From NCBI GenBank assembly GCA_963767035.1, contig CAVYBW010000001.1:2118547-2182546 (forward strand): a stretch of 64,000 nt of DNA. The letters are read 5' to 3'. The notes under the pieces were generated by a model that was not told where the DNA came from, ran no database searches, and saw only the letters and a program-made list of their open reading frames with translations. This DNA is from an uncultured Chloroflexia bacterium (GTDB lineage: Bacteria > Chloroflexota > Chloroflexia > Chloroflexales > Herpetosiphonaceae). This document shows, piece after piece, positions 37,495-64,000 of the stretch (position 1 is its first letter; every line of letters starts with the position of its first letter). A program made the translations under genes and the position numbers.

Positions 37495-38175
37495 ATGACA
37501 CAACCCCAAACGCCAGTTGAATTACGCCCAGCTAATGCCAACGATTTAGCAATTTTGGGCGAACTGTTGCTCGATTTGTACGATGCTGAATTGCCAAATT
37601 CGTTGCGTGGAGCCGATAGCCAACGCCAAGCGTTATTGCGCTATACCTTGCATGCCAATAATTTTGCTGGGGTGCGGGGGCGCTATCTAGCGCTCAATCA
37701 AGCAGGCGAAGTGATCGGCATGGCTGGGATTCAATTTCCCAACGAGCCAGCCCCCGATCGCATCCCGCGTGGCACGTTGAATATGGCTGTACAACTGCTG
37801 GGCTTGAAACACACCTTGCATCTTTTGAGCACAGTCGCGGCCTCAATGCTCATGCCACCGCCCAAATTCGACCCCAACTACGCCTATGTTCATGGCATTG
37901 TGGTGCGATCGCAGCAACGTGGGCAAGGCTATGGCGGAGCGATTATGCAAGCAGTTGAGCAGCAATTAGTTGCCCGCAAGGTTGCTGGTGCCCAACTACA
38001 AGTGATTGTTGATAACCAGCAAGCAGCTAAATTATATGAACGCTTGGGCTATCGCACGGTCTATCGTTCGCCCAAATGGCTCGATCGCGTGACGATTGCG
38101 AATATTTTGATGCAAAAACCGTTGGCAGATCAGATCATAAGGACTAGCCCTATCGAAAATCTCTACAAAGAGTAG
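37495..38175 (+). CDS. GNAT-family N-acetyltransferase
   Basis: Motif A QRGQGYGGAIMQAV...AKLYERLGY. Confidence 0.65.
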   Translation: MTQPQTPVELRPANANDLAILGELLLDLYDAELPNSLRGADSQRQALLRYTLHANNFAGVRGRYLALNQAGEVIGMAGIQFPNEPAPDRIPRGTLNMAVQLLGLKHTLHLLSTVAASMLMPPPKFDPNYAYVHGIVVRSQQRGQGYGGAIMQAVEQQLVARKVAGAQLQVIVDNQQAAKLYERLGYRTVYRSPKWLDRVTIANILMQKPLADQIIRTSPIENLYKE

Positions 38176-38184
38176 GAGAAAATT

Positions 38185-38949
38185 ATGCCTATATCTGATG
38201 ATGAACGCCCAATACAAATTACAATTACAGACTACAAACAACCAGATTTATTTAATATACAACGCTTAATGTGTCCTCATTGTGGCTTAATTTTCGATTT
38301 TCAGTTTCCATTGGATGATGAACCATTAGGATGGCCTAGTTTATCTGACGAACCTTATTATTCCGAAACATATTTTGATGATTTAGGAAATCCTTATGAG
38401 ATTATCGAAAAAACTCCTAATATTACTAAAAACTGTAGAAGATGCGGTCTGGAGATAAAAGAAGATACTCTTATATTAATTAATATTTCCAAATTAATAA
38501 ATTTTGATGATATTAGAACAATAATAAAAGATGGCGAAGGAGAAAATTTAGAGTTAAAATTACAAATGATAGAAAAAATAAAATTAGCAAAAATCATAGG
38601 ATCATTTGCGAATAAAAGAGGGGGAACGATTATCATTGGAGTAGATGATAAAAGTAGAGAAATCGAAGGGATAGAGAACCTATCGAATCATACTCAAAAA
38701 GAAACAATTATAGCTGAAGTAAAAAATGCCCAATCAAATATACAACCACAACCACAATATCACCTGAATTTTATTGAAGATAATAACAAAATAATTTTAG
38801 TTATCACCATACCTGTTTCAAGATACATATGTTATGTACGAGGAAAAGTTCCAATAAGAGAAGGTCATTCTTCGGAATCGACAAATGATCCAGCCAAAAT
38901 AGCTAATTTAAGGGAGTATCGCAAACAAACTTATAATTTTGATGAATAA
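38185..38949 (+). CDS. Zn-ribbon plus AlbA_2 (Schlafen-like 'putative DNA-binding', PF04326-type) domain protein
   Basis: CPHCG...CRRCG zinc-ribbon pairs in the N-terminal 100 aa. Then GENLELK...SFANKRGGTIIIGVDDKSREIEGI...KIILVITIPVS...YVRGKVPIREGHSSE, matching the AlbA_2 core. The coding DNA is about 30% GC against about 50% genome background. Confidence 0.75.
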   Translation: MPISDDERPIQITITDYKQPDLFNIQRLMCPHCGLIFDFQFPLDDEPLGWPSLSDEPYYSETYFDDLGNPYEIIEKTPNITKNCRRCGLEIKEDTLILINISKLINFDDIRTIIKDGEGENLELKLQMIEKIKLAKIIGSFANKRGGTIIIGVDDKSREIEGIENLSNHTQKETIIAEVKNAQSNIQPQPQYHLNFIEDNNKIILVITIPVSRYICYVRGKVPIREGHSSESTNDPAKIANLREYRKQTYNFDE

Positions 38950-38972
38950 ATAATTCGAGAAAGAGGTCGAGA

Positions 38973-39728
38973 ATGTATGAAGTTGCCCATGCACGCCCGC
39001 AACGGCTACGAATTCCGGTGGTTACATGGATTTATTGGATTGGCGTGCATATTCCAGCGCTGCTGTTGTATGCCCTAGTAACACCTTACTTTTACCAAGA
39101 TTATCCAGATGGTGGCGAATTATTTATTTTCGGCTTGATGATTGGACTCACATTAATCGCCATTGGTAGCATGAGTTATGGACAGGCTTGGATCTTAAGA
39201 CGGACAATCGATCCAAATTTATTCAAGCCATGGTTTAGAGCAACGCTTGGAGCATATTGTGTAATGAGTATTGCAAAATATATGCTGAGCATCGATTATC
39301 TACTCTTTTCAATGTTTCGCAATCCTGGTACGCACAACTCCCTCGTCCAATGGCTGCGACCACAATTAATCTCTATTACCATCACATGTTTGGTGCTTAG
39401 CAGCATTCAAGCCTTTCTATTACGTAAAGCTGGCTATCGAATGCTGCATTGGGTGCCAATAATGTTGGTTAGTTGGCTAACTGCTTCGCTAACAATCGCC
39501 TCGTTTAACATTTTGCTCTCTGAGGCTCTATCTGGAACAACGGCGATTGTGATGGGTTGCGCCAGTGTGCTCAATGGTTTGGGGCTTTTTCTGATTCAAC
39601 CTAAAGGAACTAATTTAGGCTCAATAACCTTCGTGTGCTTCGCGTTCTTCGTGGTTATAAACCCAGCGCTCAATTGCTACACTTCGACCACCGTGGATCA
39701 ATCGCTGATCCACGGTGGATTTAATTAA
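38973..39728 (+). CDS. Multi-pass membrane protein (6-7 TM), unknown function
   Basis: Hydrophobic helices throughout, reduced GC. The last 100 nt contain cttcgtg/cttcgcg repeat motifs and a palindrome, so the true C-terminus is uncertain. Confidence 0.45.
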   Translation: MYEVAHARPQRLRIPVVTWIYWIGVHIPALLLYALVTPYFYQDYPDGGELFIFGLMIGLTLIAIGSMSYGQAWILRRTIDPNLFKPWFRATLGAYCVMSIAKYMLSIDYLLFSMFRNPGTHNSLVQWLRPQLISITITCLVLSSIQAFLLRKAGYRMLHWVPIMLVSWLTASLTIASFNILLSEALSGTTAIVMGCASVLNGLGLFLIQPKGTNLGSITFVCFAFFVVINPALNCYTSTTVDQSLIHGGFN

Positions 39729-39729
39729 A

Positions 39730-40278
39730 TTAGGCTGACCAGCCCCAGCCAACCCCATCGGGTTTAGCCTCGGCATTGGGCATGGTGCGAGTCAAACGCC
39801 AAACTTGACGCGTGGTTGGGTCAGTAATTTGAAAAAGAGCTTGGGTTTCGGTTTGGTCAATCAACAAAAATTCGAGGTTTAAATTCGAAGGTGGGGTAGT
39901 GAGCAGCTGCTCAATTGCTTGGATGTAGCGTTGGGGCTGGTGGGTAAAAAGCTCATCGCCTTCGCCAAAACCTACGCTGAGCGCCTTCTGATCAAGCTCC
40001 AGCATAATCGCACTATTCAGCATGTCGGCGATTTCATGGGCGCTACTTTCTTCGCGATTGGTGCGAATACACACATATTCGGCCAAAGCGACCGGTTCAC
40101 CATGATCTTCAATTGAGTGCAATGGAAACGTAGCCAAGGGGAAGCCAAGCTGATCGGGGTGGAGCAGTTCTGATACGGCAGTACATGGTTGCGAATCCGT
40201 CGCCGCAATCACCAACCAGTGGTCGCGGGTTGGATGATGTAACAACATCCGGCGTTCCATAAAGACTCCTCTACGCAT
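39730..40278 (-). CDS. Hypothetical protein
   Basis: 182 aa ORF with normal GC and no recognised domain. Confidence 0.35.
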   Translation of the reverse strand: MRRGVFMERRMLLHHPTRDHWLVIAATDSQPCTAVSELLHPDQLGFPLATFPLHSIEDHGEPVALAEYVCIRTNREESSAHEIADMLNSAIMLELDQKALSVGFGEGDELFTHQPQRYIQAIEQLLTTPPSNLNLEFLLIDQTETQALFQITDPTTRQVWRLTRTMPNAEAKPDGVGWGWSA

Positions 40279-40512
40279 CGTTGAGAAAGGAGAATCAAAG
40301 TATAATGGATGTTTCTCGCAATGCGTACTATAGTATAACCCAAGTTATAAAAATAATTAATATATCGTTATGTATATAGATCGATAGATTAAAATCATTT
40401 CAGTTTTACCGAATGCTGATACCTCTGCAAGATTTGATATACAAGCACTGGATGTGCTTAGCAAGAATTGGCGCTTAACTAAAAATAACGTGCAATTACA
40501 CGTTATTTTTAG

Positions 40513-41416
40513 AAGCATATGGCCTTATTTAATTATTGAGCTACTACATCGCGCCGCAAACTAATCATTTCGTGTGCTAAACTAAAGCCAACTCGTTCGT
40601 ATAAACCACGGGCAGTTGGATTATCTTCATCAACCACTAATTCGAGTTCTTGAATTGCTGGCACGCTAAAGATCATGCTAAACAATGCTGCATAATCTTG
40701 GTTGCAATTCCACGGCCACGTGCAGCAGGCGCAACGCCCACAAATTCAATCCCTGCTTCGGCAAATTCTGGTTGTCGTTCAGTATGAATATAGCCAAGTA
40801 ATTGCTCGCCGTCACGCATAATAAATACTTGCCGGTCAGCATTTATGCGCTCAAGAATTTCGCTACCACTGTAGTAGGTTTTTGGAAATAATTGATCATG
40901 TAATTCACAGAACGCTGCGTGTAATTCAGCTGGCAATACTTCAACATCACCAGCAGTTACATGGTCTGTTAATTGTGAACGTTTGTAACTTAGGATTGCA
41001 TGGGTTTTGCGCTGATAAAATTGCTGGCGTGCCGCCCAATCGCGCACAAATTGGTTTTGCACATTGCAAAACATATCAATCATGGTGACGTGTGGCTTAA
41101 GCTCTGGCAGCAATTCGGCAAATAAGGCATCGGCAAGCGCAAAGCGCTCAGCACCCAAGGCAATTGGTCCCCACAAAAAAGCGCGGCCAGTATCCGAAAT
41201 TTGCTCCAAACCAATCAAGCCTTGGAATTGTTGATCATCAGTTGCCAAAGCAAATTGTTGCTCGATCGGAGATTCAAGCTCACGCCATGTTTGGGCAATT
41301 TGGTCGGCATGCGGGCCAGCAAACCCCAAGTGTGTGCTAGGATCATGCTGAAATTGGGCCATAAACGCGGCGGCTTGGTCAATTTGGGCTGGTTGCATAC
41401 GGCTAATCGTTGACAT
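40513..41416 (-). CDS. GNAT-family acetyltransferase with N-terminal extension (apparent frameshift)
   Basis: Motif A VGVAPAARGRGIATKIM in ORF 40673-41416. The GNAT C-terminus ...ARGLYERVGF continues in another frame down to 40513. The junction is at the aaa run 40680-40682 (ttt on the coding strand). Confidence 0.6.
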
Positions 41417-62650: not shown

Positions 62651-64000
62651 ATGAATCCTCAAACTGCAAAACAATCGTCTCACTATATCACGCAGCCGCC
62701 GCTCCAATGGATGGATCAAGCGCTGCCATGGCTGATCGTTAGTTTATTATTGCCAATCTATTGGCTGATGAGCAGCCCCACGATTAGCACGGCCTATGGC
62801 AGCAGCGATAGTGGCGAATTAGCAACCGCACTTTGGTTGGGCGCAGTGCCCCATCCGCCCGGTTCGCCGACCTACTTACTGCTTGGGCAAGTAGCGCTCC
62901 ACTGGTTTGGTGGCGAGCCATCCCAACGTTTAGCCTGGTTGAGCGCGATCGTCACCGCGCTGAGCGCAGGCGTGGTTGGCGCAAGCGTTGGATTAAGCGC
63001 CAGCGAACAACCCCGCTCAGTTCGCTGGAGCGTCATGCTAGCAGCAGGCTTAGGCTTTGGCCTAAGCCAACGCATCTGGCAACAAGCCTTGGTTGTCGAA
63101 GTCTATGCCTTGGCGAATCTTTTTCAGGTGTTATTGCTCTGGCTGAGCCTACGCTGGCAACGTTGGCAACACTCAAGCAGCCTCGCGGCGCTTGGCTTGG
63201 TATTTGGCCTCGGTTTAGGCGTGCAACTGCCAGTCGCATCATGGCTGGTTGGCTTTGGCTTGCTCTGGTTCAATGCCAAATTGCCAATTAAATGGCCGCA
63301 GATTGGGCTATTTTTGCTGCTGTTTGGGCTTGGCGTGAGTAGCTATTTGGTGTTGGTTTGGCGTGGCACTGTAGTTCCACAAGCAAGTTGGGGCGATTGG
63401 AGCAGCTTCGCTGGCGCAATTGACCATATCAGCGCTAGCGAATATCGCTATTTAGTTGGCGCAGTGCCACTTGGCGAGCAACTTCAACGCCTCATTTTAG
63501 CTTGTCGCGATTTACTAGCAAGCTATTGGTGGATCATCGGCCCACTTTTAATTGGCTGTGGCTGGCAAAAAATCACTGTTGCGCAACGCTGGATGCTGAT
63601 TGGCTGGGCTGGCGTTACACTGCTTTGGTCGATCAGTTATGGCGGCGCTGATGCCCAAGTCTATCTCTTGCCAATCCATGGCTTGGCTGGTTGGTTGCTT
63701 GGAATGGGAGTGGTTTGGCTGACACGTTATGCCAAGTTAGCCCGTTGGCTTTGGCTAGCACCAGTATTAATCGTGGTTGGGTTGCCGTTGGGCTGGCAAT
63801 ATTCGTTGCGTGGCCAAACCCAAAGCCGTGATCAAGCGATTCAATTGCTACAACAGCAACCAACCAATGGTCAATTGCTCAGCAACGACGATCAAACAAC
63901 ATTTAGCGCGTGGTATGCGCAATCGGTATTGGGCATACGGCCTGATGTGCAGATTATTGATCAGCGCCTACAACAACAGTTGTGGTATCAGCGACGGGAA
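62651..64000 (+). CDS. DUF2723-family polytopic membrane protein (GT-C-like, TMEM260-type), 3'-partial
   Basis: Open frame from ATG 62651 with no stop before the window end. It is not in the ORF track because it has no stop. N-terminal GAVPHPPGSPTYLLLGQ matches the DUF2723 signature, and it has many TM helices. Confidence 0.7.
   Translation, partial: MNPQTAKQSSHYITQPPLQWMDQALPWLIVSLLLPIYWLMSSPTISTAYGSSDSGELATALWLGAVPHPPGSPTYLLLGQVALHWFGGEPSQRLAWLSAIVTALSAGVVGASVGLSASEQPRSVRWSVMLAAGLGFGLSQRIWQQALVVEVYALANLFQVLLLWLSLRWQRWQHSSSLAALGLVFGLGLGVQLPVASWLVGFGLLWFNAKLPIKWPQIGLFLLLFGLGVSSYLVLVWRGTVVPQASWGDWSSFAGAIDHISASEYRYLVGAVPLGEQLQRLILACRDLLASYWWIIGPLLIGCGWQKITVAQRWMLIGWAGVTLLWSISYGGADAQVYLLPIHGLAGWLLGMGVVWLTRYAKLARWLWLAPVLIVVGLPLGWQYSLRGQTQSRDQAIQLLQQQPTNGQLLSNDDQTTFSAWYAQSVLGIRPDVQIIDQRLQQQLWYQRRE

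Follow-up and report, generated by a model that had tools for sequence, protein, structure and literature searches.

Analysis of a 64,000-nucleotide stretch of DNA from an uncultured Chloroflexia bacterium of the family Herpetosiphonaceae (GCA_963767035.1, contig CAVYBW010000001.1, positions 2,118,547 to 2,182,546 of the forward strand; hereafter the window) revealed a gene for a 254-residue protein in which a zinc ribbon is joined to a Schlafen/AlbA_2 nuclease domain. The gene lies at 38185..38949 on the plus strand and was delimited by its open reading frame (ORF), by Pfam family PF04326, by its composition, and by AlphaFold modelling followed by Foldseek searches. It is preceded by GNAT226 (37495..38175, plus strand), a gene identified by Pfam whose product shows 89-91% amino acid identity across Herpetosiphon and which is the last gene of a conserved operon. 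It is followed by a co-oriented gene for a multi-pass membrane protein (38973..39728, plus strand), 23 nt away, and then by the convergent gene orf182 (39730..40278, minus strand), an AT-rich intergenic region (40279..40532) and a second GNAT gene (40533-41416, minus strand). An exact-sequence look-up returned no record identical to the Schlafen protein of the window.

Pfam assigned residues 118-232 of the protein (38536..38880, plus strand) to SLFN_AlbA_2 (PF04326) with an E value of 2.3e-17 and 64 bits, the cut-off being 25.3 bits. The match spans profile positions 1-116 of 118, that is, a full-length domain of more than 100 residues; it is the sole Pfam match, and the protein ends 22 residues past it. 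The catalytic motif Ex4ExK is intact (E118-GENL-E123-L-K125, at 38536-38559). Among 15 family members, E118 and an acidic residue (E or D) at position 123 are found in all, and K125 in 12. A further sequence, G152-V-D-D155, is located at 38638-38649. A PDB profile search with three Herpetosiphon alleles matched the C-lobe of SLFN5, SLFN14, SLFN12, SLFN8 and SLFN11, with E values from 1.5e-9 to 1e-4. We also built an AlphaFold (AF2) model on the 15-sequence family alignment, in which the predicted local distance difference test (pLDDT) score is about 85-95 over residues 110-250. All 33 significant Foldseek matches of this model in the PDB were SLFN5/11/12/13/14, the tRNase of SAMD9, DIP2311 or a RecG-like AlbA_2 N-terminal domain. 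The model and the alignments show a predicted Schlafen fold that carries an intact Ex4ExK catalytic motif. Pfam found neither PF13749 (HATPase_c_4) nor a helix-turn-helix (HTH) domain in the protein; the identity of an HTH/HATPase regulator, including the ordinary HTH regulator family that had been raised as an alternative in a preliminary description of this locus, was therefore rejected.

The N-terminal part of the protein forms a four-cysteine zinc-ribbon module (residues 17-105; 38233..38499, plus strand), recognized by cysteines that are invariant in the 15 family members. The module consists of two zinc knuckles, C30-x2-C33 (38272-38283) and C84-x2-C87 (38434-38445), with a variable insert of residues 51-83 between them. 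Besides the four cysteines, M29, G34, F37, D38, G49, W50 and R86 are invariant across the family. No Pfam family matched the module above threshold, and the matches to zinc-ribbon families were all sub-threshold. We propose that it is a putative sensor or regulatory module. The preliminary description had noted two CxxC pairs followed by an AlbA_2 core, and both are confirmed here.

The GC content in 300-bp windows falls from about 52% to 27-34% across 38100-39000, which bears out the abrupt drop previously described for 38185-38949. The Schlafen gene has a GC content of 29.8% and a GC content at third codon positions (GC3) of 18.0%, and the adjacent genes have GC3 of 52-59%. It is the GC minimum among all 765-bp windows of the 64 kb (mean 51.4%, standard deviation 4.1%), a deviation of about 5 standard deviations. 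The membrane gene (GC 43.9%, GC3 44%) is moderately AT-rich, so that the reported persistence of below-background GC through 39728 is right in direction and only modest in degree. The larger islet of 38185-40510 proposed in the preliminary description does not hold together: it contains orf182, a gene absent from that description with a GC content of 51.5%, and orf182, the spacer and the hairpin beyond it are kept in genomes without the Schlafen gene. The compositional islet is one gene of about 0.8 kb, not 2.3 kb. The proposal of horizontally acquired cargo fits this first gene, which is foreign in composition and accessory. A pair of genes conserved in position with matching GC was not what we found, since the Schlafen gene is patchy in distribution and its GC3 is 18%. 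These results support the Schlafen gene as compositionally foreign accessory cargo.

The window derives from a Herpetosiphon genome. The proteins flanking the gene in it are 89-99% identical to those of H. geysericola, H. giganteus, H. llansteffanensis, H. aurantiacus, H. gulosus and Herpetosiphon sp. NSE202. In the gene order shared by Herpetosiphon genomes, the conserved operon GNAT294-MoxR-DUF58-GNAT226 comes first and a variable slot next, and orf182, which is convergent, lies beyond a hairpin that is likewise conserved. Between GNAT226 and orf182, H. geysericola and H. aurantiacus have the membrane gene alone. This interval contains a paralogue of the membrane protein (193-196 amino acids) together with the membrane gene in H. 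llansteffanensis, Herpetosiphon sp. NSE202 and three Logan contigs, the Schlafen gene together with the membrane gene in the window and H. gulosus, and the Schlafen gene only in the lineages L002 and L032. Judged from these alignments, the site after GNAT226 is a small variable hotspot, which is empty or holds either a membrane-protein paralogue or the Schlafen gene. The paralogues in the slot (L005 11994-12575; L010 11935-12525; L012 5385-5966; L014 2805-3395) show 23-28% identity to the adjacent membrane protein, and all of them are low in GC (35-45%).

Alignment of eight Herpetosiphon loci placed the left junction and leader of the insertion at 38125..38184 (plus strand). Homology to the empty-site genomes ends at about 38124, within the last codons of GNAT226, and resumes right after the Schlafen stop codon. 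This means that GNAT226 of the window has a private tail of 16 residues and that the insert is about 0.8 kb long and consists of one gene with its own Shine-Dalgarno sequence. The leader has the ribosome-binding site AGGAG (38174-38178), and the arrangement ...AAATGAGTAGGAG...ATG is common to the Schlafen alleles. No mobility gene (integrase or transposase) was found in or beside the 0.8-kb insert, and the sole tRNA gene found, at 63197, is not near it. A 15-nt imperfect direct repeat flanking the insert was considered as an attachment (att) site and rejected because it is missing from the other alleles. Thus, of the hallmarks of an integrative island (integrase or transposase, tRNA gene, att-type repeats), none was found at the insert. 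In L002 (about 1810-1900), one copy of a 23-nt direct repeat, GCATCTCGACAACAGAATAATCA, lies at the 3' end of the Schlafen gene and a second about 40 nt downstream, at the junction that lacks the membrane gene; this repeat may be a rearrangement scar. The H. giganteus contig (L004 11890-12008) ends 120 nt past the left junction; its junction resembles that of L002, and the slot in this species may hold DNA of a repetitive or mobile kind.

A neighbour-joining tree of the flanks gave three Herpetosiphon clades, each with one Schlafen-bearing lineage among lineages without the gene. The Schlafen gene is missing from most of the Herpetosiphon species in which the operon is retained with 90-99% identity. 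Synonymous divergence (dS) among the Schlafen alleles is 0.72-0.92, similar to that of the flanking genes (0.51-0.80), whereas the ratio of nonsynonymous to synonymous divergence (dN/dS) is 0.27-0.38 in the alleles and 0.01-0.10 in the flanks. These values fit a gene that has long resided at the locus and has repeatedly been lost or replaced, under a constraint that is relaxed but real. A fourth allele at the same locus (L032 1040-1840, Logan SRR26329190) has its start codon changed from ATG to ATA and a 2-nt deletion, which make it a pseudogene, and the membrane gene is absent there. At the level of these comparisons, a dN/dS of about 0.3 shows that the intact alleles have been under purifying selection.

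Relatives of the protein outside Herpetosiphon are few. A search of 1.84 billion cluster representatives yielded about 10 full-length relatives of 213-248 amino acids with the same architecture, and thousands more proteins that share the Schlafen domain alone, mostly at the C-terminus behind other domains. A word-indexed search with the family profile yielded about 15 clusters at 90% identity, mostly from metagenomes, with one Anaerolineales metagenome-assembled genome. The sub-family is thus very small and comes mostly from Chloroflexota and metagenomes. A scan of viral contigs contained no family relative and BFVD contained eukaryotic-virus Schlafens only, and so there is no evidence from these searches that the gene is phage-borne. 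In Anaerolineales (P0167), the homologue directly follows HsdM-HsdS-HsdR in an element with Prim-Pol and a tyrosine integrase; the homologue P0166 adjoins an integrase, and P0164 adjoins a family-B DNA polymerase. Family genes are lower in GC than their surroundings at nine of ten loci. The location of distant homologues beside a type I restriction-modification system, integrases and a Prim-Pol agrees with the earlier suggestion that AlbA_2-like proteins of this kind belong to conflict systems. The integrative element that carries the Anaerolineales homologue, with its complete type I restriction-modification system (HsdM/S/R), is located at L015 1186-7117 and 10378-13948, and it recurs in many metagenome contigs. 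Furthermore, the genes directly 5' of two distant homologues (L015 7128-7883; L021 3182-3709) each have an HEPN-like R-x4-H. A conserved HEPN-like upstream partner was nevertheless rejected, because BLASTP shows no similarity between the two products and neither has a Pfam match.

The protein can be compared with several groups of Schlafens. Its fold and E-x4-E-x-K motif match the C-lobe in the core of mammalian SLFN5/11/12/13/14 and the tRNase domain of SAMD9. A zinc-binding element belongs to the mammalian Schlafen core as well. Unlike the mammalian proteins, in which an N-lobe and a C-lobe form a pseudo-dimer, the window protein has one AlbA_2 lobe and neither a helicase nor a linker domain; an N-terminal ribbon, and not an internal finger, forms its zinc site, and identity is about 13-23%. 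The AlbA_2 fold is also shared with proteins that combine AlbA_2 with HATPase_c_4 and, in some cases, HTH ("ATP-binding protein" or "RecG-like"); DIP2311 (PDB 3lmm) is the top Foldseek match, and the H. gulosus homologue is named "ATP-binding protein" at NCBI. The window protein differs from this architecture in lacking PF13749 and HTH. Reports from 2025-2026 present prokaryotic Schlafens (pSlfn) as anti-phage effectors that are widespread and encoded by single genes (Perez Taboada et al., Nat Microbiol 2026; PMC13056530). They are defined by PF04326 with Ex4(E/D)xK, the active-site motif of human SLFN11 and prokaryotic Schlafens, fused to diverse putative sensors, and the survey comprised 55 classes and 558 unannotated clusters (PMC13056530). 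For one of them, RorSlfn5, the activator is a phage tail-assembly chaperone, and the anticodon arms of tRNA are what it cuts (PMC13056530). Since prokaryotic Schlafens are already described as single-gene anti-phage tRNases (PMC13056530), the view in the preliminary description that this is a type not catalogued as a defence system is out of date.

The window protein has the full-length PF04326, the motif, the fold and a fused accessory domain as a putative sensor, and it is of the pSlfn type in these respects. Like RorSlfn5 and EcoSlfn7, it is the product of a single gene in which PF04326 with Ex4(E/D)xK is fused to a non-nuclease accessory domain; as with pSlfn genes, the gene is accessory and patchy, and some of its relatives have a defence-related or mobile setting. 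Defence genes within 10 kb, which accompany about 70% of pSlfn members and are not strictly defining, are present for P0167 and were not found in the window. The differences are that the window protein has an N-terminal split four-cysteine zinc ribbon of about 100 residues, whereas the tested pSlfn systems have a C-terminal immunoglobulin-like domain or DUF262, and that its gene is located in a housekeeping operon and not in a defence island. In the reverse of what is reported for pSlfn5, the Herpetosiphon alleles are most conserved in the zinc-ribbon core, and the nuclease domain diverges more. Cash proteins are Schlafen tRNases switched on by cyclic tetra-adenylate (cA4) that act as dimers and filaments (PMC13462974). 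CbCash, a small single-lobe Schlafen tRNase of Chloroflexi with a catalytic E-x4-D that forms dimers and higher oligomers (PMC13462974), resembles the window protein in being a small Schlafen with a single lobe, but the latter has no Csx15/cA4-sensing domain, and the similarity is marginal and confined to the Schlafen part (E 0.55). No Cas or other defence family was found among the ORFs scanned around the Schlafen gene; CRISPR arrays themselves were not searched for. A Schlafen of Enterococcus also defends against phage (PMC13552941). Among the papers we searched, none connects a zinc ribbon with the architecture of the window protein or with Herpetosiphon.

From these data, we consider it fairly probable that the gene encodes a stand-alone, pSlfn-type RNase gated by its zinc ribbon and used in phage defence. 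The gene is a single-gene accessory insertion in the variable slot at the 3' end of the conserved GNAT-MoxR-DUF58-GNAT operon. Its co-transcription with the host operon is probable because the gaps to its neighbours are 9 and 23 nt and there is no predicted terminator before 39688. The protein would oligomerise, like other single-domain Schlafens, and would stay inactive until the zinc-ribbon module and its variable insert sense a phage protein or nucleic acid. The active protein would then cleave tRNA, and possibly other RNA, so that translation stops and phage yield is limited. Several points weigh against this reading. A scan with PADLOC of the larger ORFs (at least 130 amino acids) within about 10 kb on either side gave no defence match, and the Schlafen protein itself gave a weak domain-level match to PDC-S50 (E 5e-6). 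The neighbours recognized by Pfam are of housekeeping type: cyanophycin synthetase, NFACT, guanylate kinase, DegV, GNATs and MoxR/DUF58, together with the delta' subunit of DNA polymerase III, PD40 and LVIVD proteins and a pseudouridine synthase within 10 kb. The zinc-ribbon domain is modelled poorly (pLDDT 30-70), and at the GVDD position the family does not conserve the third acidic residue of mammalian Schlafens. Evidence from context amounts to three independent neighbourhoods outside Herpetosiphon, and the defence role proposed for the zinc-ribbon sub-family comes from sequence and context. About 30% of pSlfn genes are without defence neighbours and may be non-immune (PMC13056530).

The membrane gene was the other half of the preliminary proposal. 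Homologues of its product are found in Herpetosiphon only, with 45-81% identity; the protein evolves fast (dN/dS about 0.22), and Pfam, NCBIfam, PHROGs and PADLOC gave no convincing match for it. A hydropathy scan gave six segments, which agrees with the multi-pass protein of 6-7 transmembrane segments described before, except that the sixth lies within a read-through tail peculiar to the window genome. There, a deletion took the normal stop codon and about 90 nt of downstream spacer (39600-39728). The gene reads on from about 39609 into a terminator hairpin at 39688-39718 and encodes 251 residues instead of about 218, and the additional hydrophobic segment at the C-terminus thus stems from the lost stop codon. 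In at least seven lineages (H. geysericola, H. aurantiacus, H. llansteffanensis, Herpetosiphon sp. NSE202 and three Logan contigs) the membrane gene is present and the Schlafen gene is not, and in L002 and L032 the reverse holds. Outside Herpetosiphon, no multi-pass partner was found beside the Schlafen homologues at the loci examined; the next gene there encodes a soluble protein of 238 amino acids or one of two different small single-pass proteins, and these are unrelated. This independent distribution indicates that the two genes are independent residents of one hotspot. As far as gene content can tell, the membrane protein, Herpetosiphon-specific in the distribution of its homologues, is a resident and not a partner of the Schlafen protein.

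These observations bear directly on the idea of a cassette of two genes, with the AlbA_2 protein as nucleic-acid sensor and the multi-pass membrane protein as effector, or with both as an addiction pair. The genes are adjacent in the same orientation with a short gap, both are below the core GC, the same pair is found in H. gulosus, and two distant homologues precede small single-pass membrane proteins, although these are mutually unrelated. Synteny in the relatives does not treat the pair as a unit: the membrane gene is resident and the Schlafen gene variable, each occurs without the other, and the cassette was rejected because obligate co-occurrence fails across genomes. In addition, the Schlafen family extends beyond Herpetosiphon, which the membrane family does not, other contexts lack a multi-pass partner, and in the PADLOC check suggested earlier the membrane protein matched no defence model and the Schlafen protein gave only its weak domain-level match. 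We therefore regard the cassette as highly improbable.

It is also conceivable that the gene has a non-immune function, as an RNA- or DNA-binding protein or an RNase recruited to the operon and acting as a regulator or RNA-processing factor tied to MoxR-DUF58-GNAT. Its position inside a housekeeping operon with which it is probably co-transcribed would fit such a role, as would the lack of defence genes found within 10 kb and an allelic dS that resembles the flanks and is consistent with long residence; AlbA_2 domains are often annotated as DNA-binding, and the 30% of pSlfn genes without defence neighbours point the same way. However, the gene is absent from most Herpetosiphon that keep the operon and is decayed in L032, which shows that it can be dispensed with. 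MoxR, DUF58 and GNAT genes are lacking around the homologues elsewhere, the catalytic motif is kept with no HTH or HATPase domain, and the composition is extremely foreign. A non-immune role is thus unlikely in our judgement. Alternatively, the gene might be a selfish or decaying remnant, that is, a toxin-like nuclease gene that recombination happened to bring in, that is of no present use and that is on its way to loss. In one allele the start codon is gone and the frame is shifted, dN/dS is 3-30 times that of the flanking genes, and both neighbours in the window are damaged, the membrane gene by its stop deletion and the GNAT gene by a frameshift. Yet three alleles remain intact after a dS of about 0.7-0.9 with dN/dS of about 0.3, and the zinc ligands and catalytic residues are all kept, so that we consider a mere remnant improbable.

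Two properties of the alleles deserve attention. All Schlafen alleles (in the window, L001 10001-10795 and L002 1062-1844) have GC3 of 17-20% despite dS of 0.7-0.9, and they show no amelioration toward the host GC3 of about 55%. Furthermore, allele alignments revealed a block nearly without synonymous divergence at codons 17-50 (38233..38334, plus strand), which includes the first zinc knuckle. Among degenerate codons whose amino acid is invariant, 3 of 30 vary in the block and 54 of 88 elsewhere (Fisher p = 6e-7), and the DNA of the block is near-identical among four alleles, against differences of 9-14% in their core flanks. No stable RNA fold was predicted in the block (z = +1.4), which leaves an explanation by RNA structure unsupported; gene conversion and a nucleotide-level element are candidates. 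A bolder, quite doubtful reading would make the Schlafen gene an old polymorphic immune gene that predates the split of the three clades and is held at a GC3 of about 18%, with its extreme content of rare codons and the block both functional, and with the split zinc ribbon as an undescribed class of phage sensor for Schlafen effectors. If this were true, translation of the tRNase mRNA might, for instance, depend on the supply of tRNA or on an element at the nucleotide level.

Downstream of the slot, the locus is conserved. The 13-bp perfect hairpin at 39688..39718, between the convergent membrane gene and orf182, is conserved in all lineages, marks the right edge of the variable slot, and is likely the terminator of the GNAT-MoxR-DUF58-GNAT-(Slfn)-TM transcription unit, where TM is the membrane gene; no terminator was predicted between 38101 and 39688. 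orf182 is a core Herpetosiphon gene with 86-88% amino acid identity in L002, L003, L005 and L010, and searches of Pfam, NCBIfam, PHROGs and PADLOC yielded nothing convincing for it. The intergenic region upstream of it (31.5% GC) is likewise conserved in genomes without the Schlafen gene; aligned to these, 40260-40560 has a mean column identity of 86%. The AT-rich spacer with a perfect 12-bp hairpin in the preliminary description is real (40481-40492 / 40499-40510, extendable to 13 bp), with a loop of six nucleotides (CAATTA) and not five, but this conservation removes both from any islet. It is an A-tract/T-tract hairpin directly past the stop codon of the minus-strand GNAT gene, and its stem is conserved while its loop varies. 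Rfam gave no match in 37900-40700. On this alignment evidence, orf182, the spacer and the hairpin at 40481-40510 can be assigned to the conserved core outside the insert. By eye, the roughly 105 nt 5' of orf182 (40279-40384) look better conserved than the neighbouring coding DNA, and the palindrome TATAAC-CCAA-GTTATA within them may be an operator or leader. The GNAT genes said to flank the islet are both present, and only GNAT226 adjoins the Schlafen gene. The second lies beyond orf182 and has a 1-nt deletion near 40674 (ATGG to AT-G) by comparison with three further genomes of Herpetosiphon; this frameshifts its last 47 or so residues and reflects either a pseudogene or a sequencing error.

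In summary, the Schlafen gene leaves current concepts unchanged, and the two-gene idea fails. What it would add to the bacterial Schlafen defence nucleases is a compact sub-family with a fused zinc ribbon, 254 amino acids long in the window and mostly from Chloroflexota, which is a small candidate for how a minimal sensor controls a Schlafen RNase. The locus also offers a clean natural case of a one-gene hotspot in a housekeeping operon, where one sister species has a nuclease gene, another has paralogues of the membrane protein and another has nothing. Such a case is relevant to the persistence of defence genes outside defence islands and to the question of why these genes stay AT-rich.

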